From an uncultured Candidatus Saccharibacteria bacterium (GTDB taxonomy: Bacteria; Patescibacteriota; Minisyncoccia; Phycocordibacterales; UBA2100): DNA of 64,000 bases. The notes below the pieces were generated by a model, which worked only from the letters and a program-made list of their open reading frames with translations, was not told the origin of the DNA and made no database searches. Each line of letters begins with the position of its first letter. Positions within the stretch are counted from its first letter, which is position 1. Positions 6,243-63,579 of this stretch are shown here, piece by piece. Location of the stretch: NCBI GenBank assembly GCA_964589005.1, contig CAZPQI010000001.1, positions 67,675 to 131,674 on the forward strand, given 5' to 3'. The translations under genes and the position numbers were made by a program.

Positions 6243-6791
6243 CTACTGGCTAATTTCTATTTCTTTTTTCTTAAATAATTCTTCTAGCGAACTATTTCCT
6301 GTATCAATATGTTTTTGTAGTTCGTCTTTAGCGCCAAATTTTTCGTCTTCGCTCATGTCTCCTGCTTTTTCTTTTGCTTGAATATCTCCCCACGAATCTT
6401 CGCGTGCACCGCGCAAACTTTGGCGTGCGTCTTCCAATTTGTCTTTAGCAATTTTTATAAGCGAGTCGCGGCGCTCGGACGTAAGCTCAGGAAACGAAAT
6501 TCTAATCCCTTTGTCATCAACACCCACCCCAACACCAAAATTTGCGTCGTTAATTGCTTTCTCAATTTCTTTTATTTGCGAAGTGTCCCACGGAACAATG
6601 CGTAGCGTTCGTGCGTCCTCAACACCAATATTTGCCACTTGATTAAGGGGCATCCGTGAACCGTAGCTATCTACTTGAATTGAATCCAGTAGCGTTGGTG
6701 TTGCGCGCCCCGTGCGAAGTCCCTGATACTCTTTACGCAGCCATTCTTCCCCTTCAGTAATTTTTAACTGCAATTCTTTGAAATCGTACAT
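6243..6791 (-). CDS. frr: ribosome recycling factor
   Basis: 182 aa of typical Frr sequence (LRTGRATPTLLD..., VPWDTSQIKEIEKAI). Confidence 0.95.
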   Translation of the reverse strand: MYDFKELQLKITEGEEWLRKEYQGLRTGRATPTLLDSIQVDSYGSRMPLNQVANIGVEDARTLRIVPWDTSQIKEIEKAINDANFGVGVGVDDKGIRISFPELTSERRDSLIKIAKDKLEDARQSLRGAREDSWGDIQAKEKAGDMSEDEKFGAKDELQKHIDTGNSSLEELFKKKEIEISQ

Positions 6792-7341: not shown

Positions 7342-7995
7342 TCAATTCTTTGGTACAACTAATGCAACACTTTCCATAAGTGTTTTAAGTGATGCTCCTT
7401 TGTCTTGTAAAACTTTTCGTACATCAATAATATGCTGCAGTGCAAGTGCGGTAATTTCCGTGTTCTTAGTATTCTTCGTACTATATAATTCTGCTTCAAT
7501 ATTTTTCAAAAGTTCCCCTGCCTCTGATACACTTTTTTCTTTAAGTATTGGCTCCAGTAGTTCTAACCGAGCGCCTGCAGATGCATGTAAAAATTCTTTT
7601 CCAGAAGTGCTTTCTTTTGTCGCCGTAGTCGAGTTTACCACCCAAACGCGAGAACGAAGCGTCGGTAATACATTTTGTATGCCTGTGAGACAGATAAAAA
7701 AGTGTGTTCGCTCTGGTGGCTCTTCAAAAAGTTTCAAGAGTGCATTTTGTGCCTCTCGCGTGCACGACTGCGCTCGATATATAAATAACTGCGTTCCTAG
7801 TGAACGCATACCCGCCATATGAATAAGTGCACGACTGTCATCAATCCCCAACGTTTCAAATTCGCGAACATGCACCTCAGCATCTTTGTGAGAACCTTTC
7901 AGTAATTCCTGCAAACCAATAAAAATCCCCTCGTCATCCTCAAGTAAATACGCATGGTGTAGATTTTTTGTGTCAATAGTTTTGAGAGATTCCAT
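7342..7995 (-). CDS. holB: DNA polymerase III delta-prime subunit (short form)
   Basis: Motifs HAYLLEDD, AQNALLKLFEEPP and LPTLRSR. The usual N-terminal P-loop region is absent or shortened. Confidence 0.8.
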   Translation of the reverse strand: MESLKTIDTKNLHHAYLLEDDEGIFIGLQELLKGSHKDAEVHVREFETLGIDDSRALIHMAGMRSLGTQLFIYRAQSCTREAQNALLKLFEEPPERTHFFICLTGIQNVLPTLRSRVWVVNSTTATKESTSGKEFLHASAGARLELLEPILKEKSVSEAGELLKNIEAELYSTKNTKNTEITALALQHIIDVRKVLQDKGASLKTLMESVALVVPKN

Positions 7996-8630: not shown

Positions 8631-8880
8631 AGACGCTCGACCAAAAGACCCTGCAGAAATGTGGGGTTCTTTTTTTATGTAATTTTTTTAAAATTGATAC
8701 GTACAGGTGAAGTTATCTTGCGAATACCGTGCTAGGAACACGAGTAAAATTTAGGTCATAGCGACTTTTATTTTTGGATGTAGTGCAAGGCGCAGGAGAA
8801 AAACAAAAGAGACGTATTAACAATACGGCGAGTGAAGTTTTTTGAACTGTAACGCAGTAATGCGCCAAAAATAAAAGCCT

Positions 8881-16654: not shown

Positions 16655-16774
16655 TACTTTCTATTATATCACGTTGAAAAAACACTTTTCTCGTGTAGAA
16701 TACGGCTCAGTTCTTTCCAAAGTTATATAGATTTTTTCGCTCCGCGGTAGCTCAGTGGTAGAGCAATCGACTGT

Positions 16775-17026
16775 CGAAGGCAGCCTTTGGTAGTAATATC
16801 AAAGTGAAGAACGAGGTGAATTGACTGGAAACCCTAACGTAAAGGCGAGGGCAATCAGCAGCCAAGCTTAATTGAAGGTTCAGAGACTATTCCGAAAGGA
16901 AGTACTATCCATTGTAATTATTTTGCAACTGGACGGGAAGCGCCTCGCATCCTAATCCGATCACGTCAGTGATTTAGGATGGATGATGATATAGTCCACC
17001 CCTTTTGGAAACAATTGGAAAAGGTG
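16775..17026 (+). mobile_element. putative group I intron (approx 252 nt) in the tRNA-Asn anticodon loop
   Basis: The 5' exon ends in U and the intron ends in G. An internal guide GCAG can pair with exon CUGU to form P1. GGAAACCCUAACG, CCAAGCUU and AGAGACUA match elements I recall from small bacterial tRNA group I introns of the Azoarcus tRNA-Ile / cyanobacterial tRNA-Leu type. A GACGGG...AUAGUCC P7-like pairing is present. The size fits that class. Confidence 0.6.
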
Positions 17027-17046
17027 TAATCGATTGGCCATAGGTT

Positions 17047-17064
17047 CGAATCCTATCCGCGGAG
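17047..17064 (+). repeat. direct repeat copy A (tRNA 3' end gaatcctatccgcggagc)
   Basis: An identical 18-mer recurs at 17445-17462. The pair flank the HNH ORF. Confidence 0.75.
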
Positions 17065-17102
17065 CGAAGTAATCTATACTTAAAGAGTGGTAGACTTAAT
17101 AG

Positions 17103-17435
17103 ATGTCTACCACTAAGAAACGAAAAGAAAAACGTACGTACGCCGATCGTCGTGAGTACATGATAAAGGCAGTCGCTAAACGACGCAGAAAGTTACGAAC
17201 TATGGCTTTAGAGCATGGAGGTGGTAAGTGTACGATTTGTGGGTATAAGAAATGCACTAGAGCGCTCACTTTTCATCACCTGGATCCATCTAAGAAAAAG
17301 TTCGGATTATCTGCCAGAGGGATAACTCGCTCATGGGAAAAAACTAAAGCAGAGTTAGAAAAATGTGTTTTGCTATGTATGAACTGCCACATGGAAATAC
17401 ATGATGGAGTTACTAAAGTTCCAAAGAAAAGGTAA
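17103..17435 (+). CDS. HNH endonuclease
   Basis: 110 aa with CxxC...HHLDP...N...CxxCH, a His-Me finger. Lies immediately 3' of the intron-containing tRNA, bracketed by duplicated tRNA 3'-end sequence. Confidence 0.8.
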   Translation: MSTTKKRKEKRTYADRREYMIKAVAKRRRKLRTMALEHGGGKCTICGYKKCTRALTFHHLDPSKKKFGLSARGITRSWEKTKAELEKCVLLCMNCHMEIHDGVTKVPKKR

Positions 17436-17444
17436 TTTTACGTT

Positions 17445-17462
17445 GAATCCTATCCGCGGAGC
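17445..17462 (+). repeat. direct repeat copy B (partial tRNA 3' end)
   Basis: gaatcctatccgcggagc preceded by gtt. One base of the tRNA T-loop (c) is missing. Looks like an att-site-style duplication. Confidence 0.75.
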
Positions 17463-17489
17463 CATCGACATGCAAAAATATTTTTCAAT

Positions 17490-17517: not shown

Positions 17518-17551
17518 AATAAATTACGTAATTCTGCTAAAATCAAAAATA

Positions 17552-17728
17552 ATGGGACGACGCAAACTAAGTGACAAAAACATACGAAAACTAAGTAAAA
17601 TTGGTGGCAAAAGCATCGGTGTCACGATTCCTATTGAAATGGTGCGTAAATTAGGATGGAGAAGTAAGCAAAAGGTTGTTGTAGAAGAAAGAGGCAAGAC
17701 CATTGTCATCAAAGATTGGAAAAAATAA
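17552..17728 (+). CDS. AbrB/MazE/SpoVT-like small DNA-binding protein (58 aa; below ORF-track cutoff)
   Basis: MGRRKLSDKNIRKLSKIGGKSIGVTIPIEMVRKLGWRSKQKVVVEERGKTIVIKDWKK. The pattern (K.G.s..vtIP.e....lg...g..v.v...g..ivI) matches the swapped-hairpin AbrB/MazE fold. Confidence 0.45.
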   Translation: MGRRKLSDKNIRKLSKIGGKSIGVTIPIEMVRKLGWRSKQKVVVEERGKTIVIKDWKK

Positions 17729-24333: not shown

Positions 24334-24383
24334 AATGAAGAATCTTAGACTCAAAGTGCTATACTAAACGAACAATTGAATAA

Positions 24384-24526
24384 ATTATCAAGAAAGATGT
24401 GAAGGGACTAGCCTTATGACCATCTTAGCAACCTGTCTCTTCGTCCAGATAAGGTGCTCCATCTAGCCTGTATAGGAAAGATAACAATGCATCAGCATCT
24501 TACCCTTCACAGGAAAGATGTTTTTT
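24384..24526 (+). promoter_or_regulatory. SAM-I (S-box) riboswitch with terminator in the metK leader
   Basis: UUAUCAAGAAAGAUGUGAAGGGACUAGCC...GCAACC...AGAUAAGGUGCUCC...AUCUAGCC...GGAAAGAUAA matches the SAM-I consensus blocks (YUCUUAUCAAGAG..GGAGGGACUGGCC...GCAACC...AAGGUGCUAA..CCAGC..GAUAAGA). It is followed by the hairpin catctt...aagatg plus TTTTTT just before the metK start. Confidence 0.8.
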
Positions 24527-24539
24527 AGTGTTAAAAGAT

Positions 24540-25478
24540 ATGAAGAAAACAGCAGAATTCGTAAGTCCAAAGCATCCAGATAAAATATGCGACTATATAG
24601 CGGATATTATATTAGATGCTTACTTGGGTGATGATAAAGATAGCAGAGTGGCCATCGAGGTTATGGGTGGCCACAATCTTGTTACCGTAAACGGAGAAGT
24701 AACGAGCAAGACAACCATAGATATTGAGGGGCTTATAAAAAACATAGTAGGCTCAGATTACAAAGTGATATCTAATGTCGTAGCACAAAGTAGCGAAATA
24801 GCGCGCGGTGTAGACACTGGAGGTGCAGGTGACCAAGGAATAATGAAGGGTTACGCAACAAGCGAGACAGAAAGCCTAATGCCATTAGAGTACGAACTTG
24901 CTCGAAACTTATGTATGAAAATTTTTGAGGTTTATCCTTATGACGGCAAGACTCAAATTACAATCGATGGAGAAAAAGTTACGTCGGTAATTGCTAGTTT
25001 TCAAAATTCTAAAAGTGATGAGCTGTTATCATTAGTAAAAAGTATTATTCAGTCCGAAGAGTACTTCATAAACCAATCAGGAGAGTGGTCGCAAGGTGGA
25101 TTTGATGCAGATACTGGGCTCTCGGGACGAAAACTTATTGTAGATAATTATGGCCCTGAAGTGACCATAGGAGGTGGCTCCTTTTCTGGAAAAGATTACA
25201 CAAAAGTGGACCGCTCGGGAGCATATATGGCTCGAAAAATATCTGTTGACTACCTAAAGAAGCGCTCAGCCAAGGAAGTACATACGAAGTTAGCATATGC
25301 GATAGGAAAACCTGAACCAGTTATGGCAACTGCTATTATAGACGGAAAAGAAATTCCAATAGAGGGGTACAATTTAACACCTGCTGGGATAAGGAAATTA
25401 CTGAAACTAGATAAGCTAAAGTTGTCGACAACCTCTAACTGGGGCCATTTTGGTAGAGGTTTTGAATGGGACGTTTAG
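24540..25478 (+). CDS. metK: S-adenosylmethionine synthetase (compact)
   Basis: Motifs KHPDKICDYIAD, GAGDQG and GGGSFSGKD. The first ATG lies 4 codons inside the tracked ORF, which is GTG-initiated. Confidence 0.93.
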   Translation: MKKTAEFVSPKHPDKICDYIADIILDAYLGDDKDSRVAIEVMGGHNLVTVNGEVTSKTTIDIEGLIKNIVGSDYKVISNVVAQSSEIARGVDTGGAGDQGIMKGYATSETESLMPLEYELARNLCMKIFEVYPYDGKTQITIDGEKVTSVIASFQNSKSDELLSLVKSIIQSEEYFINQSGEWSQGGFDADTGLSGRKLIVDNYGPEVTIGGGSFSGKDYTKVDRSGAYMARKISVDYLKKRSAKEVHTKLAYAIGKPEPVMATAIIDGKEIPIEGYNLTPAGIRKLLKLDKLKLSTTSNWGHFGRGFEWDV

Positions 25479-47193: not shown

Positions 47194-47309
47194 TGTTGCT
47201 TGACCACCAAGCGATGGCGAGAGTCCGCATTCCAGACGTTGTCATTGTCAAAGCGGTTCACGTTGACCTTGAGCTTACCAGCATTCACATTGACGTTAGC
47301 GACAAACAG
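47194..47309 (-). repeat. DGR template repeat (TR)
   Basis: The minus-strand reading frame is LFVANVNVNAGKLKVNVNRFDNDNVWNADSRHRLVVKQ, with 8 AAC/AAT codons. It is 100% identical to the VR except at 10 adenines. Confidence 0.85.
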
Positions 47310-47638: not shown

Positions 47639-48295
47639 TCAAACAGTCTGTTGCTTGACCACCAAGCGATGGCGAGAGTCCGCACGCCAGACGTAGCCAT
47701 AGTCAAAGCGGTCCACGTAGACCTTGAGCTTACCAGCACTCACATCGACGTAAGCGACAAACAGTTCATCATTTACTTCAAACAAAAAGAAGGTGCCATA
47801 TCCTTCTTGCCGGAGCAAGTCGCGATGCGAGCGGCAAAACTCTTTTATCTGTCCCTGGGTGAGACAGAACTTGTGTGGGTCGCCGAGTGAGCTAAACAGC
47901 GTTTGATAGTTACCGTCGTGTGTCATTTCGTACACGTCAACGGCTGTTTTTTCGGTGTCTTCGCCGGGGACGTTCGTGCTCCAGTTTTTGAAGTCACTGT
48001 CAACCCATCCGTTGAAGACGTCGTTGGCTTTAGCGAGTGTGACCGCGCCCTTCGCGAAAGCGATGGTGGTACTTTCAAGATAATGGAGGTAATCGTTGTC
48101 CTTGGTAGGGGCGATGGCCTCTAAAAATGCCTCGATACCACATTCCATTGCTTCGGCTCCAGCCTGAGTGCCAAGACGATGAATCGCCTCATCACTTATT
48201 CCGTGTTCACGGAGTCCGTTGATAACCCCACCTGCAAACTGAACGAGCCAACCTGCACCAGAGATAATCTCGTGTGGTTTATTTTTGCTAGACAT
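47639..48295 (-). CDS. DGR target protein (218 aa) with C-terminal variable region
   Basis: No signal peptide (MSSKNKPHEIISGAG...). The last 41 residues (LFVAYVDVSAGKLKVYVDRFDYGYVWRADSRHRLVVKQQTV) are encoded by the VR. Confidence 0.8.
   Translation of the reverse strand: MSSKNKPHEIISGAGWLVQFAGGVINGLREHGISDEAIHRLGTQAGAEAMECGIEAFLEAIAPTKDNDYLHYLESTTIAFAKGAVTLAKANDVFNGWVDSDFKNWSTNVPGEDTEKTAVDVYEMTHDGNYQTLFSSLGDPHKFCLTQGQIKEFCRSHRDLLRQEGYGTFFLFEVNDELFVAYVDVSAGKLKVYVDRFDYGYVWRADSRHRLVVKQQTV
47649..47764 (-). repeat. DGR variable repeat (VR)
   Basis: Aligned to the TR, the substitutions are N>Y, N>D, N>S, N>Y, N>D, N>Y, D>G, N>Y and N>R (the last being 2 nt). Every changed nucleotide is A in the TR. 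Confidence 0.85.
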
Positions 48296-50396: not shown

Positions 50397-52094
50397 TTAT
50401 AAATTTGCGAGCTTTATATGTAACTCTTGGCACTTCAGTGCCATTTCCTCTATTTTTTTTGCATTCCCCTCGCTTTCTGCTTTTTTAAGTTCTGCACTAG
50501 CTATTTCCAACTCTTTTCTAACTCCTCCATTTATTAAGCGCTCGAGTAAATCATTAATTGCGCTCCTTGTTGCGTCTTCTGTTGTATATAACAATTCGAA
50601 TCGGAACGCTGCTTCTGTATCACCTATTAATCTTTCTTCATGTGCTTTAAAACCAATTGGCGTAAGTGCATCTTCTATCTGTTTTTTAAATCTTTTAACA
50701 TCAACAAATGGTTCGCTAAGACTTTTTTGCCATAGGTACATTAACATCAACTCGTTTTCTACATTACGTACCTTCTCCATACGTTTTTCTTTATCACCCC
50801 CATTAGTAACTCCAGCATTTAATGGTGTCGCTTTTATTTTGGAAAGCTCTTGTCGTACCGCTTCTTCTTTTACTGCCAACTGAGCAGCAACTTTTTGAAT
50901 AAAGTGACTCTTGTCTATTTCGCTCGCAATGTCGTGTAAATATGGCAACACCTCTTTGGTTACGATAAGTTTAAATGCGCGGTCGTCTTTTGCATGCTCG
51001 CGATAATATTCTAGAAGAAACTCTACAACATGTTTAGAATCTTTTATCGCCTTCTTCCAATTATCTACGTCGCCTCTTCCAAGCATATCCGACGGATCCT
51101 CTCCTTCTGGCAAGGCAACTATCTTTACATCAAACCCGGCGCGCAGCGCAGCGCGAGCCGACTTCCCTGCACTTGCGATGCCTGCCTCATCTGAATCCAG
51201 TGCTAAGCAAAGATTATTCGACATTCGCCCCAGTAACACAATATGCTCGGGGGTCAGTGCAGTGCCCGAAAGCGCCACGGTGTTTGTATATTTCGCTTGA
51301 TGTGTCGCTAGCAAATCCATTTGACCTTCAACTAACACTGCAAAATTTGTTTTACGAATAGCCTGTCGTGCCCTATCGTAGCCGTATAAAATTTTCGATT
51401 TATGATACAGCGCAGTTTCAGGAGAATTTATATATTTCCCAGTGTTGTCGTCTTCTTTATCGAATATCCTTCCTGAGAACGCCACCACACGCCCTACACT
51501 ATCAGTAATGGGAAACATAATCCGTGAGCGAAAACGATCATAAAAGCCTTTATCTCCCTTTTTTATCAACCCCGCATCTTCAATATGCTTCTCACTAAAT
51601 CCAGCTGCCCTAAGATGGTCCAGTGCACCACTCCACCCATCGGGCGCAAATCCAACACGAAAAGATTCAATAGTTTCTTTAGTCAGACCGCGATCGGTTA
51701 AGTACTTGATCGCCTTTTTATTTTTCTTTAGGTTGTCTACATAATACGCAGTTACCGATTCAAGAATAGAAAACAAAGTATCTTTGTCGTCTTTCTGAAC
51801 TCCTTTGTCGAATGTTAACTCTACTCCAGATTTATCGGCGAGCATTTTAAGTGCACCTCTAAAATCAAGCCCCTCGATTTCTTGCACAAAAGTGAAAATG
51901 TCGCCGCCCACACCGCAACCAAAGCAGTGATACGTATCTCGCATAGGTGACACAATAAACGACGGGGTCTTTTCTGCGTGGAACGGGCACTTACCCTTCA
52001 GGTTACTCCCCGCTGCTTTAAGTTCAACGTACTGCCCTACCACTTCCTCGATAGAAAGCCGTTCTTTTATATTTTCTACATTTCCTATAGCCAT
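50397..52094 (-). CDS. dnaG: DNA primase
   Basis: CPFHAEKTPSF zinc ribbon, RNA-polymerase domain and TOPRIM (EGQMDLL, ALDSDEAG) motifs. Confidence 0.95.
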   Translation of the reverse strand: MAIGNVENIKERLSIEEVVGQYVELKAAGSNLKGKCPFHAEKTPSFIVSPMRDTYHCFGCGVGGDIFTFVQEIEGLDFRGALKMLADKSGVELTFDKGVQKDDKDTLFSILESVTAYYVDNLKKNKKAIKYLTDRGLTKETIESFRVGFAPDGWSGALDHLRAAGFSEKHIEDAGLIKKGDKGFYDRFRSRIMFPITDSVGRVVAFSGRIFDKEDDNTGKYINSPETALYHKSKILYGYDRARQAIRKTNFAVLVEGQMDLLATHQAKYTNTVALSGTALTPEHIVLLGRMSNNLCLALDSDEAGIASAGKSARAALRAGFDVKIVALPEGEDPSDMLGRGDVDNWKKAIKDSKHVVEFLLEYYREHAKDDRAFKLIVTKEVLPYLHDIASEIDKSHFIQKVAAQLAVKEEAVRQELSKIKATPLNAGVTNGGDKEKRMEKVRNVENELMLMYLWQKSLSEPFVDVKRFKKQIEDALTPIGFKAHEERLIGDTEAAFRFELLYTTEDATRSAINDLLERLINGGVRKELEIASAELKKAESEGNAKKIEEMALKCQELHIKLANL

Positions 52095-55832: not shown

Positions 55833-58800
55833 TTATTTGTCGGTGTTAGAGCTACTAATAGGATTTTTTTCTAGGTTTATATCGAGTGCTAATCCACGCA
55901 GGTGACGAACCAAAACATTAAATGTCGCAGGTACGTTTGGCTCTCGTATACGCTCCCCTTTTACAATCGCATCGAATGCGGCTGAGCGTCCAAGAATATC
56001 GTCTGACTTAATGGTGAGCACTTCACGTAGTGCATACGCCGCACCGTAGCCAAGCATTGCCCACACTTCCATTTCTCCAATTCGTTGCCCCCCGTTTTGC
56101 GCTTTACCGCCAAGTGGCTGCTGTGTAGTAATAGAATATGGTCCCACACTACGCATGTGAATCTTATCTTCCACCATGTGGTGAAGTTTTAAGATGTACA
56201 TATTTCCAACGGCAATAGGTTGGTCGAATTTGTCTCCTGTTCGTCCATCGTAAAGTTCTAGTTTTCCTGTTTCGGGGAATCCGGCCTCTTTAAGTTCATC
56301 TGTAATTTCTTTTTCGGTCGTTCCCGAGAACGGTGCAACAATCGCCTGATACCCAAGCTCTTCAGCAGCGAGCCCGAGATGCATTTCCAAAATCTGCCCC
56401 AAGTTCATACGAGAAGGCACTCCGAGGGGTGTCAAAATAATATCAATTGGCTTTCCTTCTTTTGTATATGGCATGTCTTCTTCGGGAAGTACGCGAGAAA
56501 TAACACCCTTGTTACCGTGGCGTCCTGCAAGTTTGTCTCCCACTGAAATGTTTCGCAATTGCGCTACTTCGATGTGAATTCGCTTAATGATTCCACTTTC
56601 AAGTTGGTCACCGTTTTCACGAGAGAATATGCGAATTTTTACAATGCGTCCTCGTTTTCCTGCTTCCATTCGTAGTGATGTATCTTTAACATCTTTAGCT
56701 TTCTCACCAAAAATAGAACGAAGTAGTCGCTCTTCTGGTGTCAATTGTGTCTCACCCTTTGGCGTTACTTTACCTACTAGAATGTCGCCCGAGCGAACCT
56801 CTGCACCAATGCGCACAATTCCCTCTTCGTCTAAGTTTTTAAGTTTCATTTCCGAAACGTTCGGAATATCGTAGGTTGTTACCTCGGGGCCAAGTTTCGT
56901 GTCGCGAACATACGACACAAATTCTTCAACATGAATTGAGGTAAATTTACTTTCTTTCACGAGTCGTTCAGAAATAACAATAGCATCCTCGTAGTTGGAT
57001 CCCGCCCACGACATAAATGCAATGCGTGCGTTTTGTCCAATAGCAATTTGCCCATCAACACTTGAAGATGTATCTGCAATAATGTCACCAGTTTTTATTT
57101 TATCGCCAACATTTACTGCAACTCGTTGGTGGAACATAGACATGTCGTTGGTACGTGAAAATAAAACAAGTTTATACTCTTTTTCCTTTCCTTTTGTATT
57201 TTTAACAACTACCTTACGCGCGTCGGCGTAGGTAACGGTGCCAGATTCAGTTGCAATTATAAGACGGCCCGAGTCGCGCGCTGCGTTTTCTTCGATACCT
57301 GTGGCAACATACGGAATTTCAGGAATGACGCAGGGAGTTGCCTGCTTTTGCATGTTTGATCCCATAAGTGAGCGGTTTGCGTCATCGTGCTCCAAAAACG
57401 GAATCATGGTTGTTGCAACTGAAAATGCTTGTCCTGTAGCTACTTCAATATATTCAACTTCTGTTGGCTTCACAAAATATGGTTCTCCCTTTTTGCGTGC
57501 TTCAATAAGTTTTCCTTCTATTTTTCCGTTTTTGTCGCGATCGGTTGCAGCATGAGCGATAAAGTAACGCTCTTCCACAAGTGCATTCATGTAAACAATT
57601 TCGTTTGTAACCTTTCCTTTCTCTACACGCGCATACGGAGTTTCAATAATTCCAAAATCGTTTAGTCGTGCGTGTACTGCAAGACGCAGAATAAGTCCGA
57701 TGTTTTGTCCTTCAGGAGTTTGAATTGGACACAATCGTCCGTAGTGGCTCGTGTGCACATCGCGCACATCAAAACCAGCTCGCTCACGTGTAAGACCTCC
57801 GGGGCCAAGTGCACTTAAGGTTCGCAAGTGCTCAAGTTCAGCGAGAATATTGTGCTGATCCATGAACTGCGAAAGTTGGTTTGTGGAAAAGAATTCCATA
57901 ACCGCAGCTGAGAATGGCCGCGGGTTAATGAATTGTACGGGTAAAATAGTTTCTGCATCAACGGTCGACATTCTATCTTGAATGTTACGCTTCATACGAC
58001 TCATTCCGATTCGTACTTGGTGTTGCATCATTTCGCCGACATAGCGAACACGACGAAATCCAAGGTGGTCGATATCATCTTCTTGTGCTCCTTTTGTGTT
58101 GTTAAGTGTAATTATGTTCCCTACAATACGCACAACGTCATCTTTTGTAAGTGTTTGTTCTTCAAGTGCCTTAGGGGTAGTTTTAAGATCAAAACGGTGA
58201 TTAAACTGGTATCGTCCCACACGCGAGAAATCGTATCGTTCCTTGCTAAAAATTGTAGAAACAAATTCTCGTGCGCTGTCAGGTGTTGCTAGGTCTCCAT
58301 CGCGAAGTCGTTTATATACTTCAACAAATGCATCAGCTGTAGTTTCTGCAATGTCGTTCTCGAGTGACGCTTTAATTACTTCATCTGCCCCTTTCACGTC
58401 CTTAAACGCTTTAAGCATCTCCTTTTCAGTCTCAAGACCAAAAATCTTTAAGAATGTAGTTACAGGAAACTTTCTCTTGCGATCAATCTTTACGTAAATA
58501 GCTCCATCTGGTTCTGCTTCAATTTCTACCCATGCACCACGGGCTGGAATAATTTTTGCGCCAAAATATTTTGCTCCCTTTATTTCGTTCTTCAAGAAAA
58601 ATACACCGTACGAACGGGCAAGCTGTGGTACCACCACACGCTCAACACCATTGATGATAAACGTACCGTGGTCGGTCATATATGGGAAATCGGCTAGGAA
58701 AATCTCCTGGCTCTTTTTCTCTCCTGTAGTTTTATTAGTGAGCTTCGCTTCAATGCGAAGTGGAATCTTATAGGTAAGACGCTTAAATTTAGCGTAGTGC

Positions 58801-59021
58801 TCGTCGTACTCTGGTTTTCCAAATTTGAAGCTCGAGATGTCGAGATCAAACTTTTTTCCCGAGTAATCGGAAATTGGCGAGAACTCCTCAAAAACAGATT
58901 TAACTCCAACTTCGAGGAGTCGCTTGTACGAGTTCAATTGTTCACAAACAAGGTCAGGTGTTTCGGTCATGTTCGTGGTGAACTTCCCGAAATGTTTTTT
59001 GGGTAATTTTGTGTTACTCAT
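55833..59021 (-). CDS. rpoB: DNA-directed RNA polymerase subunit beta
   Basis: 1062 aa with the conserved beta-subunit blocks (GRHGNKGV, the rifampicin cluster region). Confidence 0.98.
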   Translation of the reverse strand: MSNTKLPKKHFGKFTTNMTETPDLVCEQLNSYKRLLEVGVKSVFEEFSPISDYSGKKFDLDISSFKFGKPEYDEHYAKFKRLTYKIPLRIEAKLTNKTTGEKKSQEIFLADFPYMTDHGTFIINGVERVVVPQLARSYGVFFLKNEIKGAKYFGAKIIPARGAWVEIEAEPDGAIYVKIDRKRKFPVTTFLKIFGLETEKEMLKAFKDVKGADEVIKASLENDIAETTADAFVEVYKRLRDGDLATPDSAREFVSTIFSKERYDFSRVGRYQFNHRFDLKTTPKALEEQTLTKDDVVRIVGNIITLNNTKGAQEDDIDHLGFRRVRYVGEMMQHQVRIGMSRMKRNIQDRMSTVDAETILPVQFINPRPFSAAVMEFFSTNQLSQFMDQHNILAELEHLRTLSALGPGGLTRERAGFDVRDVHTSHYGRLCPIQTPEGQNIGLILRLAVHARLNDFGIIETPYARVEKGKVTNEIVYMNALVEERYFIAHAATDRDKNGKIEGKLIEARKKGEPYFVKPTEVEYIEVATGQAFSVATTMIPFLEHDDANRSLMGSNMQKQATPCVIPEIPYVATGIEENAARDSGRLIIATESGTVTYADARKVVVKNTKGKEKEYKLVLFSRTNDMSMFHQRVAVNVGDKIKTGDIIADTSSSVDGQIAIGQNARIAFMSWAGSNYEDAIVISERLVKESKFTSIHVEEFVSYVRDTKLGPEVTTYDIPNVSEMKLKNLDEEGIVRIGAEVRSGDILVGKVTPKGETQLTPEERLLRSIFGEKAKDVKDTSLRMEAGKRGRIVKIRIFSRENGDQLESGIIKRIHIEVAQLRNISVGDKLAGRHGNKGVISRVLPEEDMPYTKEGKPIDIILTPLGVPSRMNLGQILEMHLGLAAEELGYQAIVAPFSGTTEKEITDELKEAGFPETGKLELYDGRTGDKFDQPIAVGNMYILKLHHMVEDKIHMRSVGPYSITTQQPLGGKAQNGGQRIGEMEVWAMLGYGAAYALREVLTIKSDDILGRSAAFDAIVKGERIREPNVPATFNVLVRHLRGLALDINLEKNPISSSNTDK

Positions 59022-59355
59022 AATTTTTATAACTTTCTTATTTGGCGTAGTTCGTTGTTACCGCACAAAAAACCCTCGCTCCCCATATTGCAATATGGCT
59101 CGCTCGATTTTCCGCTTGCGCCTAGAACTACATCCAAATGCGTAAGTTCTAGAATAACTACAAACTAGAACGACGACGCAGAATCCCGACCAAAGGATTT
59201 TCTACCTCGTTTAACTTACACACTATGTTTATAAAGGGGTCAGGTGGGACTGGGAGTTTAACCACCTAACTAAAGTATTAAAAAACACTTTTCATAACAC
59301 AGCTGGTGACAAGCACACAACTAGCCATAACACAATCGAACAAAAAGTTCCCGCC

Positions 59356-59383
59356 ATTTTACATGATGCAGGAATTTTGTCAA
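59356..59383 (-). promoter_or_regulatory. near-consensus sigma70 promoter TTGACA-16-TAAAAT upstream of rpoB
   Basis: Read on the minus strand. About 335 nt upstream of the rpoB start. Confidence 0.45.
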
Positions 59384-59396
59384 ACACCTCTACCCT

Positions 59397-59588
59397 AAAA
59401 ACACATGTCGTTGTGTCTGGGTGAATGTTTTTATTCTAAAAACCCAAAACAGACAGTTAACTGTCTGTTTATTCAAAATGCCCTAGGAGCCTCCTAGGGC
59501 ATTTTGATTCCTCCCAATCTTCAACCTGCCTGCCGGCAAGGCAGGTAATTATACGTTTACATTTTTCGTCGATGGTGGATTGGAGTTT
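59397..59588. repeat. R-family intergenic repeat copy 1 (about 192 bp) with three hairpins H1-H3
   Basis: Near-identical to 62099-62292. H1 is aaacagacagttaactgtctgttt at 59447-59470. H2 is aaaatgccctaggagcctcctagggcatttt at 59475-59505, a terminator-like hairpin flanked by an A-run and a T-run. H3 is a GC-rich hairpin at 59524-59546. The repeat abuts the pepE stop. Confidence 0.85.
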
Positions 59589-60239
59589 TTATACAACAAC
59601 ACTTTCGCCTTCTCCTACTATTTCAATTTCTCCGTCAGCAACTTTGATCGCTGAGTTGTCGTCAATTCCGTACAACGGAGTTTGCAAGTCTTCTATTGAT
59701 TCTAAAATTTCTTTTCTAGATTGTGGAAAGTGAGCTGAGTTGAGGTGAGGAATGACTATCAAGTCAACAAAATCTAAAGACGGCTCCAGTTCTTTTTCTC
59801 GTTGTTCTTTAGGATACACTTGTTTAAATACTTCACCTGGCATAAATTTCCCAGCCACCATGCTTCCTGCACTAATTCCCATAAACACACGGGTCTCTAA
59901 TAGTTCGGGAAGTGTTGCTCCCAACCCAGATTCACTAATCATTTTTGCTAAATACTGCTCATCGCCACCGCCAAAGCAAATCAAATTTGCTTTTTCTAGT
60001 CTTGGACGCCACTTGTCTTCAGGAATCGCAGAAATATCTACAATATCAATAAATCCATAATCTTGTTCTTGAAAATGTCGTAAGTCGTCGATGAGCCACC
60101 CCTTGCCGCTTTTTTCAAGATTTGCAGCTGTCGGAACAAATACTAATTTCACTTCATTGGCAGGAACACCAACAAGATCAAGAATTGCGTCTGCGATAGT
60201 TTTATTTCTAATCCCCGCCGATGTCAAAAGTAATTTCAT
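59589..60239 (-). CDS. pepE: peptidase S51 (dipeptidase E-like)
   Basis: MKLLLTSAG, GGGD and GISAGSM (Ser nucleophile) motifs. Confidence 0.85.
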   Translation of the reverse strand: MKLLLTSAGIRNKTIADAILDLVGVPANEVKLVFVPTAANLEKSGKGWLIDDLRHFQEQDYGFIDIVDISAIPEDKWRPRLEKANLICFGGGDEQYLAKMISESGLGATLPELLETRVFMGISAGSMVAGKFMPGEVFKQVYPKEQREKELEPSLDFVDLIVIPHLNSAHFPQSRKEILESIEDLQTPLYGIDDNSAIKVADGEIEIVGEGESVVV

Positions 60240-60250
60240 ATTTTCATTAT

Positions 60251-60350
60251 ACCAAACCAAACACCCATCCCCTAAAACACATCTTTGTTATATCCGATTG
60301 AATATTTTTTATTATAAAACTCCAAAACCTCCAGTTAACTGGAGGTTTTG
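60251..60350. repeat. S-family intergenic element copy 1: a gene terminator hairpin plus a conserved roughly 55-nt leader carrying TGnTATAAT about 7 nt from the pepE ATG
   Basis: Shares cctaaaacacatctttg.t....c.g.ttgaatattttt with 60950-61050. Hairpin aacctccagttaactggaggtt lies at about 60326-60347. Confidence 0.7.
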
Positions 60351-60380
60351 AGGTTTCTATATACAAGGGACGGCTCTTTG

Positions 60381-60926
60381 TCATGACTTATTGTCTTTAG
60401 GTTTTTTATTTGCATCTTCGATCCACTTCTGCATTTCAGTTCGAGTCATAATGCCATTAGCGGTACGTGCTTCATCAGTAACACCGGACTCTTCATCAGA
60501 GAGAATCTCTCGGAGAATTATATTTCCCTCTTCGTCTCTTCCCATCTGCGTTCCCCATTTCTGTTTTTCGTTTATTGAAAGCAAGTATCTATCCTCTGCA
60601 AGACACACAAAGTGCCGAGCAACCTCATATCCTCCGTCTACTGATTCCTGTGCGAGCTCTTGGGCTAATTGATAGTCTTTGGTTTTTTGTCCATGTTGGA
60701 ATAGTAAAGCAAGATGAAATAAACTCTTTGGTGAAAGAGGTGCCGTTTCCTTGTTTTCTACTATTTCTACCGCACGTGCGTATCGAACTTTATCACGTTC
60801 AAAGCAAAGTTGTGGATCTGTACTAAAAAGACCACTAGCCACTCTATCTCCCTGATCCTCCTCATACATCTTTTGTGTTTCTCGCTCGAGATCAGAAGTT
60901 ATTTCTGGTTCTTCAATTTCTTCCAT
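60381..60926 (-). CDS. hypothetical acidic protein (181 aa)
   Basis: No motif recognised. Flanked by S-family elements. Confidence 0.35.
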   Translation of the reverse strand: MEEIEEPEITSDLERETQKMYEEDQGDRVASGLFSTDPQLCFERDKVRYARAVEIVENKETAPLSPKSLFHLALLFQHGQKTKDYQLAQELAQESVDGGYEVARHFVCLAEDRYLLSINEKQKWGTQMGRDEEGNIILREILSDEESGVTDEARTANGIMTRTEMQKWIEDANKKPKDNKS

Positions 60927-60949
60927 ACAACAATCTTACCTCCACACAC

Positions 60950-61050
60950 CACCAAAACCAACTCCCTTCTCCTAAAACACATCTTTGGTGTGCTCGGTTG
61001 AATATTTTTGTTTGTAAAAAAATACCGCCGCCCGAGGTGGGCGACGGTAA
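60950..61050. repeat. S-family intergenic element copy 2
   Basis: GC hairpin accgccgcccgaggtgggcgacggt (about 61024-61048) followed by a T-run on the minus strand, then the conserved leader ahead of the 60381-60926 gene. Confidence 0.7.
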
Positions 61051-61074
61051 AATATAAATTTGTGGAAAATCTAG

Positions 61075-61992
61075 TTAGGCAATAATATTAAGTTTTTTCT
61101 CTTGTATACCTAACTTGATATATGTCCAAGCAGCTTCCGACGTTTGCCGATTAACAGAACCTCTTGCCGCGTCTTGCACAGTGGCGAACACAGAACCGCA
61201 ACTCTGTGTAGCAATTTCGTGCAGTTTCTTCCACGTCACTTCGTCCATTTCCATTGGACGGTGAGGGTCTGTAAGCATATTAAGACTCTCCGCTTGACAA
61301 ATCATTAATAAAACATTTGCCCGAGCATCCCCACAGACACGTAGTACCGATTCAACTATATGTGGATCAAGTAGCGAAGAAGATTTTAACGTAAGCGTTT
61401 CAAGCCCGTTACTCTTTGTTGGCTTCCACACCCAACGAACAAAAGACTCCCAAAAAGCAAACGTGACCGAAACGGCATGATCACTTCCAGAATTCTTCCA
61501 AGCTGGGCGCGGGATATTATAAGAACGTTCAGTTGGATCAAAAAACCACAGTAACTTTTCTAACAAAACAACACCGTAAGCGCCAGACTTTAAGAAGAGT
61601 TTCTCAAAATCATTACTGTGATTACACCCTTTGAAAAAATTTCTAGCAAGAGCGCGGTGTGCCTTTTTTACGACTGCTTGCAACGATTCGTGTTGTTCGC
61701 GAAGTCGAGAGTCCAGTCGACTGGATACACCAAACACGTCGTAGCCATTAGCAAGATCCAAGTAACGAATTATGCAATCAATTTCCAAATCACGTTTCTT
61801 ATCCCAATCGCTACCACTGAGCGTATTCATATCAAATCCTATATGGACTAATTCACTCACTTGCCATAGTGGAACCGGTTTTTGCAAAAGAACTTCATCC
61901 AAAGTTTCCCTCCACTGAGAGTACGTACATAGATGGCGGATATCACACCCATTAAGAGGATGTCCATCTTGAAGAATATTCGTATCTGCCAT
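61075..61992 (-). CDS. hypothetical protein (about 306 aa)
   Basis: The start is taken at MADTNIL, preceded by AAGGGAA. No motif recognised. Confidence 0.35.
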   Translation of the reverse strand: MADTNILQDGHPLNGCDIRHLCTYSQWRETLDEVLLQKPVPLWQVSELVHIGFDMNTLSGSDWDKKRDLEIDCIIRYLDLANGYDVFGVSSRLDSRLREQHESLQAVVKKAHRALARNFFKGCNHSNDFEKLFLKSGAYGVVLLEKLLWFFDPTERSYNIPRPAWKNSGSDHAVSVTFAFWESFVRWVWKPTKSNGLETLTLKSSSLLDPHIVESVLRVCGDARANVLLMICQAESLNMLTDPHRPMEMDEVTWKKLHEIATQSCGSVFATVQDAARGSVNRQTSEAAWTYIKLGIQEKKLNIIA

Positions 61993-62098
61993 TTTTCTAT
62001 TCCCTTTTTGTTTCAAGACCGAACCATTTACGATCTGTGCTTAGACTATGCTACTTTGAAATCCTTCTGTCAAGACTACTGCCAGAAACCAAATTTCA

Positions 62099-62292
62099 AA
62101 AAACACATGTCGTTGTGTCTGGGTGAATGTTTTTATTCTAAAAACCCAAAACAGACAGTTAACTGTCTGTTTATTCAAAATGCCCTAGGAGCCTCCTAGG
62201 GCATTTTGATTCCTCCCAATCTTCAACCTGCCTGCGCAGGCAGGTAATTATACGTTTACGTTTTTCGTCGATGGTGAGTTGAGGGTATTTTG
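62099..62292. repeat. R-family intergenic repeat copy 2
   Basis: Identical to copy 1 through H1 and H2. H3 is a perfect 20-bp palindrome acctgcctgcgcaggcaggt here. Abuts the doc stop. Confidence 0.85.
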
Positions 62293-62730
62293 CTAAGTGG
62301 ATATATTTTCTCGAATCCATTTCGCTAAATCTTTTTTAACTTCAAGAAAATCTTCTGACTTTGTTCGAGCTAACCAAAGCGCTTTATTGGTAAGTTCATC
62401 AGGATTTACAGTGAACCTTTGCTCATTAAGAGACAGGAACACCAAAAAAGAAATTGTAGACATGCGTTTATTACCGTTAGCAAATATCTGCCCTTTGCAA
62501 ATTGTGTAGAAAATAATAGCTGCCTTATCTTCAATATCTGGATACAACTCTGTACCGTAGGATGTGCGCTGAGGAACAGCAACAAGACGTTCTATTCCCA
62601 TATTATCTGCCAGTGAAAAATCTGGAATTGGCTCTCCTCTATCACCAGTCCAACTGGCGAGTAATTTATGGATACGCTTATAATCCTCTTTATCGAGATA
62701 CTGTATCTTTGACTTGTTCTCCCCGATCAT
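62293..62730 (-). CDS. doc: Doc/Fic-family toxin (death-on-curing)
   Basis: FANGNKRMS matches the Fic/Doc HxFx(D/N)GNKR core. 145 aa. Confidence 0.8.
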   Translation of the reverse strand: MIGENKSKIQYLDKEDYKRIHKLLASWTGDRGEPIPDFSLADNMGIERLVAVPQRTSYGTELYPDIEDKAAIIFYTICKGQIFANGNKRMSTISFLVFLSLNEQRFTVNPDELTNKALWLARTKSEDFLEVKKDLAKWIRENIST

Positions 62731-62842
62731 ATCGCGCCAAATCTTTAAAAGTCTTTTCGTATCGTTTTAATGCACTTTTACTCACACTTTTAATTGTGTG
62801 ATTCTGAACTGCTCTCTTTAGGATTTTTTTAATGGTGGTCAT
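62690..62842 (-). CDS. small 50-aa ORF overlapping the doc start, candidate cognate antitoxin (below ORF-track cutoff)
   Basis: MTTIKKILKRAVQNHTIKSVSKSALKRYEKTFKDLARYDRGEQVKDTVSR. Overlaps doc by 41 nt, in the usual upstream-antitoxin position. Confidence 0.35.
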   Translation of the reverse strand: MTTIKKILKRAVQNHTIKSVSKSALKRYEKTFKDLARYDRGEQVKDTVSR

Positions 62843-62925
62843 ATGAATGTATTAATAGTCATTATACACCAATCTAAAGCATTCAATCAACTAACACGAT
62901 GGATAGACACGTGTAAAACATACAC

Positions 62926-63022
62926 TTCAAAATGCCCTAGGAGCCTCCTAGGGCATTTTGACATCTTTCAATCTTCAATAATTATACGTGTACGTTTTTC
63001 GTCGATGGTGAGCTGGGGTTTT
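62926..63022. repeat. R-family repeat copy 3 (partial: H2 plus the 3' tail, H3 deleted)
   Basis: Carries aaaatgccctaggagcctcctagggcatttt and ...attatacgtgtacgtttttcgtcgatggtgag. Confidence 0.8.
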
Positions 63023-63210
63023 TAACTTCTAAATATTCTGTGCCAAAACAAAAACCTTGCGATTAATCGCAAGGTTTTTGTTTTCATATTACCCAAGAGG
63101 GATCTCTTAAACTCATATACCAGATGTTAATTGACTCATCGCTTAAAACGCGTCATCATCCTGCCAGAACAAAACAAATTGAAAACCAACTCATATGGAG
63201 GATATATATC

Positions 63211-63579
63211 ATGAGTTTTTTACTTTTTGGAATAACTTTAGGAAAAAAGCCTACCTCACAGCCAACCGAACCAGATCCTTGGGAAGGCAGCTCTGGTACG
63301 CACGTTAGCGTCTACAAGTCAGAGATACAGAATATTGCAGACTTTCTGTCTGATGACACACGAAAGGTGCTCACACGATTCGTTCGAGAAGAGAAATGTG
63401 CGGAACTTTATGTGGAGGGTGATGCCGATGGTTATGGAATTATTGCAAAAATACACATACATGTATCCAAAGGTGTTCCATATGAAGCGGTCGTAAATCC
63501 CGTAAACCTTAAGAAATCTGAGGAAATGGCGTTCATTAACAAAATACCTCTCTCTGTCGAATTTAAACGAGATTCCTAA
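63211..63579 (+). CDS. hypothetical protein with N-terminal TM segment
   Basis: ATG preceded by GGAGGA. No motif recognised. Confidence 0.4.
   Translation: MSFLLFGITLGKKPTSQPTEPDPWEGSSGTHVSVYKSEIQNIADFLSDDTRKVLTRFVREEKCAELYVEGDADGYGIIAKIHIHVSKGVPYEAVVNPVNLKKSEEMAFINKIPLSVEFKRDS

Follow-up and report, generated by a model that had tools for sequence, protein, structure and literature searches.

The Accessory Island Between trmD and rpoB

The chromosomal interval between trmD and rpoB on contig CAZPQI010000001.1 of an uncultured Candidatus Saccharibacteria bacterium (GenBank assembly GCA_964589005.1) contains a repeated unit of about 190 bp, here called R, in three copies designated R1, R2, and R3. 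The window analyzed is the whole stretch of 64,000 nucleotides (nt) between positions 67,675 and 131,674 of this contig; all positions are counted from its first letter, and the related loci and independent contigs used for comparison carry L numbers. The RpoB sequence assigns the organism to the Patescibacteria, or candidate phyla radiation (CPR), and the closest public genomes encode RpoB proteins that are 88-90% identical to it. Patescibacteria have tiny genomes and are presumed to hold few classical mobile elements. The local genes lie on the minus strand, with the exception of one open reading frame (ORF) on the opposite strand, and are read in the order trmD, antitoxin-like ORF, doc, g3, g2, pepE, rpoB, and rpoC. 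The cargo genes span 59589-62842 within a trmD-rpoB gap of 4.6 kb. Across about 70 related loci, no more than 250-800 nt separate trmD from the rpoB gene downstream of it, and the 4.6 kb found here are therefore a lineage-specific accessory island. Among 5.8 billion proteins g3 has a single homolog, encoded on a contig of 982 nt that reveals nothing of its gene neighborhood, and no exact-protein record was found for either pepE or the opposite-strand gene. No integrase or recombinase gene is present in or beside the island, nor do the island genes encode a recombinase domain recognized by Pfam or PADLOC.

Arrangement of the R Copies

An earlier note on this DNA described R as an intergenic repeat family built from three hairpins (H1, H2, and H3) and placed exactly at the 3' ends of genes. 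The three copies and their coordinates (Table 1) are confirmed, and searches of shuffled sequence give an expectation of 0 chance matches for both the H2 31-mer and the 20-mer TACGTTTTTCGTCGATGGTG; the repeat is real, far beyond chance. R1 and R2 form direct repeats 2,702 nt apart and are near-identical, as had been noted. Counted along the plus strand, their first 137 nt are 100% identical and the rest about 88-93% identical, with a 3-nt insertion or deletion in H3; in a gapped alignment read in gene sense, all differences fall within the first ~70 nt and are followed by 148 identical nt. R1 directly abuts the pepE stop codon (TAA, 59589-59591) and R2 that of doc (TAG, 62293-62295). Placement at gene 3' ends thus holds for these two copies but not for R3, which lies upstream of the promoter of the antitoxin-like ORF and doc and whose other neighbor is on the opposite strand. 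Similarly, the complete set of hairpins is a property of R1 and R2. What R3 has in common with them is H2 (35/35 nt) and the TACGTTTTTCGTCGATGGTG stretch; it lacks H3, as previously described, but also H1 and module C, with at most a possible right arm of H1 at ~62912-62926. Because the genes are on the minus strand, the order of the unit is the reverse of that implied earlier, and in gene sense reads remnant (module A/B), H3, H2, H1, and C.

Independent metagenome contigs reproduce this arrangement: L188 contains pepE, R1, and rpoB in succession, and both L001 and L002 contain R3 and R2. Contig L002 begins at R3, and L001 and L188 end inside pepE, close to R1; identical repeats of 148 nt are likely to serve as assembly breakpoints. 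Variation was also noted in these contigs. L188 (~300-320, corresponding to ~59465-59472 of the window) represents a population variant of R1 with an 8-nt tandem duplication (TAAACAGA) between H2 and H1. L001 matches the window at 99.7% identity as far as 59696, inside pepE, and then continues into unrelated sequence (L001 12735-12869); either pepE is truncated here by a structural variant or the contig was assembled as a chimera. L002, obtained from a second sample, matches the window at 100% identity apart from a deletion of ~62 nt in g3 (L002 1606-1650 versus 61354-61415) that splits the ORF and suggests that part of the population can dispense with g3 or carries it in a decaying state.

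A Gene Remnant Within the Repeat

About one third of the R unit derives from a gene. A DNA profile of 64 distinct AbrB/MazE-like family genes from other loci, run over the whole window, gave four significant matches, namely an intact paralog (17551-17726, E = 9.5e-23), R3, R1, and R2, with the next match at E = 0.85. All three matches in R are on the minus strand and fall at model positions ~124-186, and on the basis of these matches module A/B is identified as the tail of a lost AbrB/MazE-like gene, comprising the last ~20 codons of a 61-aa family gene. A profile search recovered 88 members of this family (AbrB/MazE/SpoVT, PF04014), mostly from Patescibacteria, many of which end in QKLQLTIDEKRKRIIIEDWEK. 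The remnant peptides are identical to the family C-terminus at 14-16 of 17 residues. Compared as DNA with the 3' ends of the family genes of L083, L108, and L106, the remnants show 76-91% identity, with R2 reaching 91% over 35 nt to L083 and R3 79-82% to L083 and L108. The stop codon of pepE (TAA) aligns with family codon Q41 (CAA). Coding capacity has been lost, as codons 1-40 are absent, a TGG to TGA change puts a stop in place of W59 in R3, H3 interrupts the frame in R1 and R2, and the copies share no common start codon. Similarity, orthologous position and orientation, and loss of coding capacity together establish a pseudogene fragment of the AbrB/MazE/SpoVT family, and the earlier description of R as an intergenic element recognized neither this fragment nor the lineage-specific island. 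The spurious ORFs of 45-49 aa annotated over R should be removed.

Two other readings of the coding similarity were rejected. Read-through of pepE or doc into R, or a small ORF there, is incompatible with the frames, which differ between copies. An upstream extension of the R3 remnant through a palindrome at 63045-63084, in which tblastn reached residue 20, was discarded, identity being at chance level outside the last 17 residues. The palindrome itself is perfect over 40 nt (AAAACAAAAACCTTGCGATT/AATCGCAAGGTTTTTGTTTT) and separates R3 from the promoter region of the opposite-strand gene; resembling palindromes occur in L154, L108, L047, and L075.

An intact AbrB/MazE-like gene occupies the trmD-rpoB gap, on the rpoB strand, in all six genus-level relatives recovered (L005/L109, L083/84, L085/86, L087, L106/107, and L108). 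In L005, for example, it is an ORF of 62 aa, and module A/B resembles the last 20 codons of this ORF. The stop codon of the intact gene is 10-21 nt from the rpoB -35 box (L106, L005), and the cargo around it differs from relative to relative, including NUDIX, zeta toxin, DUF6884, a 380-aa protein, and unknown genes. A hairpin of the H1 type, centered on CAGTTAACTG, is located 72-75 nt upstream of the start of the intact gene in L083, L085, L106, and L107. The hairpin of the g2/pepE intergenic region (IGc) is 91% identical over 44 nt to the one upstream of the intact gene in L106/L107, which means that pepE is flanked by both flanks of the missing 5' part of the gene; module C and pepE therefore stand exactly where L106 has the operator, the promoter, and codons 1-41. 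R1 is the in situ remnant of the gene. Among 90 loci carrying a family gene, truncated copies were found in this genome only. A mirror phenomenon of R copying is seen in L106, in which a 73-nt module of hairpin and palindromic operator (TACGTAAGTATnTACGTAAATAC) is duplicated (6640-6712 and 7916-7988, 86% identity); in the hairpin stem the changes between the two copies are compensatory. The gene for the 380-aa cargo protein is preceded by one copy and the AbrB/MazE-like gene by the other, suggesting that the L106 regulator also controls its neighbor gene.

Hairpins, Terminators, and Promoters

The predicted folds are very stable (z-scores of -7.0, -6.9, and -7.8) and are dominated by H3, H2, and H1. 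H3 is an insertion of 18-21 nt in the remnant, without counterpart in R3 or in any intact family gene, and in R2 it is the perfect 20-nt palindrome previously described. Terminator-like hairpins directly after two genes are borne out by H1, which passes the terminator scan in R1 and R2, as do the hairpins of IGc and of the g3/g2 intergenic region (IGb). H2 passes the scan in R3 only. It is identical in all three copies (35/35 nt), whereas 5 of the 19 nt next to it are changed in R3, which suggests constraint or conversion. H1 and H2 resemble known tandem or bidirectional intrinsic terminators in that H1 is a GC-containing perfect palindrome between an A-tract and a T-tract, H2 has a 16-bp stem, and in R1 and R2 both follow directly on stop codons; they depart from them in that the U-tract of H2 is weak in R1 and R2, H2 of R3 ends no gene, and H3 lacks a T-run.

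Part of the unit, the terminator with module C, is shared by IGc and IGb at 76-80% identity, the module C of IGb being 80% identical to the IGc copy. This combination of terminator and leader (H1 and C) is used four times, before g3, g2, pepE, and rpoB, and to this extent the suggestion of a reused terminator-plus-promoter module is sustained. A promoter-like sequence, TTAACT-16-TA(G/T)AAT, is overlapped by H1 in three of the four copies (R1, with the TAGAAT form, R2, and IGc), but the copy before g2 in IGb has a different hairpin and the promoter scan found no promoter-like site in it. In IGc an extended -10 element, TGGTATAAT, lies 7 nt ahead of the pepE ATG. In R2 the half module C is followed by unique sequence with a promoter-like site for g3, and the g3 and rpoB promoters are both outside the repeat. 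The earlier note had R1 supplying the region just upstream of the rpoB promoter. R1 does not supply the promoter itself, because the TTGACA -35 box, the -10 box, and the leader are common to relatives without R (L003, L004, L005, L083, and L106) and the promoter begins 14 nt beyond R1; it is ancestral. A stretch of ~100 nt in the rpoB 5' leader (~59033-59138, minus strand) recurs upstream of rpsP (74% identity) and beside an mreB-like gene (72%), the stretches elsewhere lying at ~8773-8877 of the window, L001 6191-6286, and L106 8402-8526. Relatives have kept it in their rpoB leaders (L106 at 77% identity), and it may be a common structured leader or another repeat.

Module C was considered as a structured RNA and rejected, there being no consensus fold and no covariation, and it has no similarity to the relatives beyond the hairpin. 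Searches of R against Rfam 15 gave best matches of 19-29 bits, below thresholds of 50-113 bits. It is very unlikely that R encodes a small RNA, starting after a TATAAT in the remnant and ending at H2/H1, or a small peptide from the 49-aa ORF over R2. The TATAAT is present 45-65 nt upstream of H2 in all three copies, but it merely represents the family codons R-I-I (CGTATAATT), is accompanied by no usable -35 or extended -10, and was not flagged by the promoter scan. Likewise, a Shine-Dalgarno-like GGGAGGAA is found 6 nt ahead of an ATG in R1 and R2, but this ATG opens an ORF of two codons; the 49-aa ORF, annotated by JGI gene callers, has no start in R1 and is interrupted in R3. R lacks an Rfam match, and its six-frame translation matches nothing among the 5.8 billion proteins.

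Table 1. Features of the trmD-rpoB interval and of related sites. Positions refer to the window unless an L number is given; residues in square brackets within the R1 and R2 remnant peptides correspond to H3.
Feature	Position	Strand	Remarks
rpoB	55833-59021	-	rpoC after
rpoB promoter	59356-59383	-	TTGACA-16-TAAAAT, outside R1; conserved leader after
pepE	59589-60239	-	S51 peptidase
IGc	60240-60380	-	g2/pepE intergenic; H1-type hairpin 60322-60351, module C
g2	60381-60926	-	no family match
IGb	60927-61074	-	g3/g2 intergenic; different GC-rich terminator 61023-61049, module C
g3	61075-61992	-	orphan gene, no family match
doc	62293-62730	-	Doc/Fic toxin
Antitoxin-like ORF	62690-62842	-	50 aa
Opposite-strand ORF	63211-63579	+	
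trmD	ends 63634	-	
R1	59397-59588	-	full unit, directly after pepE stop; ends 14 nt upstream of rpoB -35 box
R2	62099-62292	-	full unit, directly after doc stop; module C stops halfway
R3	62926-63022 (feature listing to 63024)	-	partial, decayed copy: remnant and H2
R1 remnant	59508-59590	-	codons ~41-61, interrupted by H3; KLQSTIDEKCKRIIT[CLAGRQV]EDWEE; nhmmer E = 8.4e-6, model 125-186; tblastn
R2 remnant	62210-62282	-	QLTIDEKRKRIIT[CLRRQV]EDWEE; nhmmer E = 9.2e-6
R3 remnant	within 62926-63024	-	KPQLTIDEKRTRIIIED followed by a stop; nhmmer E = 1.4e-7, model 124-183
Intact AbrB/MazE-like paralog	17552-17728	+	58 aa, PF04014; reference for remnant origin
H1 in R1	59447-59470	-	24-nt perfect palindrome, then TGGGTTTTT; terminator-like on minus strand
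H1 in R2	62149-62172	-	repeat, terminator, and fold evidence
H2 in R1	59473-59507	-	35-nt near-perfect palindrome, 16-bp stem, then UUUUGAA
H2 in R2	62175-62209	-	repeat and fold evidence
H2 in R3	62927-62961	-	35/35 identical
H3 in R1	59525-59545	.	21-nt imperfect GC-rich palindrome CCTGCCTGCCGGCAAGGCAGG (plus strand), inserted within remnant
H3 in R2	62226-62245	.	perfect 20-nt palindrome ACCTGCCTGCGCAGGCAGGT
Module C in R1	59378-59446	-	unstructured leader-like stretch; also in R2 (5' half), IGc, IGb
H3 core sites	62227-62244; 59525-59545; L001 7131-7148; L007 8182-8199; L034 819-836; L028 8490-8505		
H3-type sites	L111 4427 and 9676; L165 4403		

Distribution of R and of the H3 Palindrome

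All R copies lie within 3.7 kb. Neither the window nor the 8.4 kb flanking it on either side (L001 and L186), ~81 kb in total, contains a further copy, and related loci totaling 2.3 Mb contain none. As an exact pattern, the H2 core has no match in 185,579 species genomes or IMG/VR, and none in the JGI metagenome collection, a negative that is weak for this population because the collection lacks the two JGI samples in which the organism occurs. The 194-nt unit is without a match in phage and plasmid collections. Within the sequence searched, R is locally restricted and is not a dispersed repeat family, contrary to the name given to it in the earlier note. The same note had allowed for a search that would find only these copies, left by a single recent local duplication; only local copies were indeed found, but they record more than one duplication event.

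It is accordingly most improbable that R belongs to a dispersed, possibly mobile intergenic family, comparable to miniature inverted-repeat transposable elements (MITE), repetitive extragenic palindromes (REP), or bacterial interspersed mosaic elements (BIME), that supplies terminator and promoter modules at gene boundaries. R resembles REP/BIME, Correia, and MITE repeats as a palindrome-rich unit of ~100-200 nt at gene ends, such units sometimes having promoter or terminator activity. Its position at the 3' ends of two genes, the fourfold use of H1 and C with the promoter-like overlap in R1, R2, and IGc, and the recurrence of the H3 core palindrome in other Patescibacteria would all fit such a family. 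Against it stand, besides the local confinement and the lack of matches to the H2 core and to the 194-nt unit in the collections searched, the structure and composition of R. Terminal inverted repeats do not exceed 6 nt (ends AAAAAC/GTTTTT), there is no target-site duplication, the flanks are unrelated, one third of the unit is a gene fragment, and the rpoB and g3 promoters are outside it.

The H3 palindrome has a wider distribution. In 2.2 Mb of Patescibacteria loci no other perfect palindrome recurs as often as its core, CTGCCTGCGCAGGCAG, which occurs in four independent genomes; close variants are present in L111 (two copies), L135, L136, and the L165/L166 pair. Inside coding linkers of L007, L034, L001, and L028 the core reads (D)LPAQAG, alike on either strand because it is a palindrome. 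The site in L007 and L034 is in a tail, probably that of ribosomal protein S16, just upstream of the KH-domain gene; that in L001 is in the linker of a KH-domain protein, and that in L028 in a homolog of the ORF at 50397-52094. As regards a clean 18-nt insertion in the KH-domain gene, the linker is highly variable at the site. Possible identities of the core are a small palindromic insertion element and a conserved hairpin, and H3 (CCTGCCTGC/GCAGGCAGG) may be a small palindromic element that inserts in coding DNA (as LPAQAG, on either strand) as well as non-coding DNA throughout the phylum. A role as a DNA-uptake-type motif was rejected, the H3 8-mer not being enriched in the window; the 17 matches in IMG/VR, mostly on contigs of 52-67% GC (one of 42% GC), are uninformative.

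Proposed Origin and Present Role

The R copies are best understood, with a probability of roughly two in three, as paralogous junction segments within the lineage-specific island, that is, recombination scars that now act as predicted terminators. This reading combines the identity of the remnant, synteny, the status of the region as an island, hairpin stability, mosaic identity of the copies, and local restriction with a conjectural recombination route and predicted terminator activity. The island would have been inserted into the otherwise conserved trmD-rpoB gap, and the regulator or antitoxin gene that relatives have intact there is here without its operator, promoter, and first ~41 codons, the pepE cassette standing, for R1, exactly in their place (compare L106). 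H2 is probably the terminator of this gene, and in R1 and R2 it is followed by H1, of the canonical intrinsic terminator type, and the leader module C. After a single truncation of the regulator gene, the remaining segment would have been copied at least twice as cargo was stacked, in the form of the antitoxin-like ORF with doc and of g3-g2-pepE. Duplication may have proceeded by homologous recombination in the shared segment, such as a Campbell-type single crossover of a circular intermediate, or alternatively by unequal exchange followed by gene conversion; each such exchange would leave the segment on both sides of the insert. In module A, R2 differs from R3 by one mismatch and from R1 by three, and the mosaic identity of the three copies is therefore a signature of recombination or gene conversion between them. 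R3, with its premature stop and half-deleted H1, is the older copy. The remnant itself is non-functional, and the most likely present role of the R copies would be that of tandem bidirectional intrinsic terminators insulating the cassettes from each other and from rpoBC. The proposal that direct repeats 2.7 kb apart could mediate deletion of the intervening genes is valid in principle only.

Several observations do not sit easily with this account. The starting codon is the same in each of the three remnants, to within about 3 nt, which excludes independent deletions and requires a single truncation followed by copying; it is awkward that each new cargo should end exactly at the codon-41 border, for which no simple mechanism accounts. 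The four metagenome contigs show no structural variant in the form of an empty site or a circle junction. The scheme does not account for where module C came from, and terminator activity of H2 is uncertain because its U-tract is short in R1 and R2. Finally, copies farther off in the genome may exist, as ~81 kb were searched of a genome assumed to have the size of ~0.6-1 Mb that is typical for Patescibacteria.

The common 5' border of the remnants also bears on a different possibility, that small cassettes integrated site-specifically into the AbrB/MazE-like gene at its 3' end, with tandem accretion, and left the copies behind as att-like direct repeats. Integration leaving 3'-end repeats is known for e14 and phage 21 at icd. 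Accretion of cis-mobilizable elements (CIME) and integrative mobilizable elements (IME), such as ICESt1/CIME at fda, leaves integrated elements flanked by direct repeats of the target-gene 3' end (PMC5704250), and tandem ssrA islands of Dehalococcoides are bounded by 3'-end repeats (PMC3146451). The cassettes described here would now be devoid of an integrase, as cis-mobilizable elements are, and would have relied on a recombinase provided in trans. The R island is like these systems in that copies of a gene tail, following each cargo block, bound successive accessory blocks at a fixed hotspot, the blocks have no recombination genes of their own, and the cargo includes a toxin-antitoxin pair. 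Moreover, the cargo of the trmD-rpoB gap differs in every relative, and H2 is a perfectly conserved palindrome of 35 nt. It is unlike them in that no integrase or recombinase gene lies in or beside the island and the array lacks an intact target gene at its upstream end, where R3 is cut at the same codon and is directly preceded by the opposite-strand gene and trmD. The repeats are of unequal extent (97-194 nt) and include terminators and a leader, for which homologous exchange is a better fit than a fixed core. Evidence of excision was not found, the cargo of the relatives is without such repeats, and the 90 other loci in which the family gene occurs are free of remnant copies. The phenomenon is seen in a single lineage. 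Site-specific integration of this kind is thus unlikely.

Unlikely too is an undescribed, dedicated cassette-array process in which the AbrB/MazE-like 3' end and the invariant 35-nt H2 serve as a recombination site immediately upstream of rpoB in Patescibacteria. Cassettes without an integrase would be captured, and the border of the remnant at codon 41 may be the crossover point. If the copies were true recombination sites, they would represent a simple cassette-capture system in CPR bacteria; the evidence favors ordinary homologous recombination. Integron attC sites were rejected, as the borders are TAAAAAC/CAAAAT, the H1 loop GTTAAC does not fit GTTRRRY, and an integrase is lacking.

Homologous recombination as the source of the junction segments invites comparison with the minimal mobile elements of Neisseria, hypervariable slots between conserved genes that are filled by homologous exchange after DNA uptake. 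Here too, the flanking genes (trmD and rpoB) are conserved and the cargo between them changes from one relative to the next (NUDIX, zeta toxin, DUF6884, hydrolase, doc, and S51 peptidase), and the slot contains no mobility genes. The Neisseria slots, in contrast, normally lack internal duplicated junction segments, and transformation is only assumed for the present organism. With R read as junction segments, what appeared to be a repeat family becomes a readable history in which a regulator gene beside the rpoB promoter would have been overwritten and its tail copied with each accessory addition. In one genus-level group of Patescibacteria the trmD-rpoB gap stands out as a hotspot at which genes turn over. 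Direct repeats made of a gene remnant and terminators that bound hotspot cassettes are an arrangement of a known kind, present here directly upstream of rpoB in a CPR bacterium.

Additional Features of the Window

Three further features were noted outside the island. A second pair of direct repeats (47194-47309 and 47649-47764; 116 nt, 91% identical, 455 nt apart) is unrelated to R. The intact AbrB/MazE paralog, together with a gene for a SocA/Panacea protein with a helix-turn-helix (HTH) domain, adjoins a region in which a group I intron apparently splits a tRNA gene (16742-17066; Rfam intron match 16725-17018), although ARAGORN did not detect the tRNA. Beyond the split gene there is an HNH endonuclease ORF (17103-17435), followed by a duplicate of ~24 nt of the tRNA 3' end (17441-17464; GTTGAATCCTATCCGCGGAGCC), and the three together look like an insertion at a tRNA gene. 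Lastly, an S-adenosylmethionine (SAM) riboswitch (RF00162, 49.7 bits) is located at 24382-24487, upstream of an ORF at 24528-25478.

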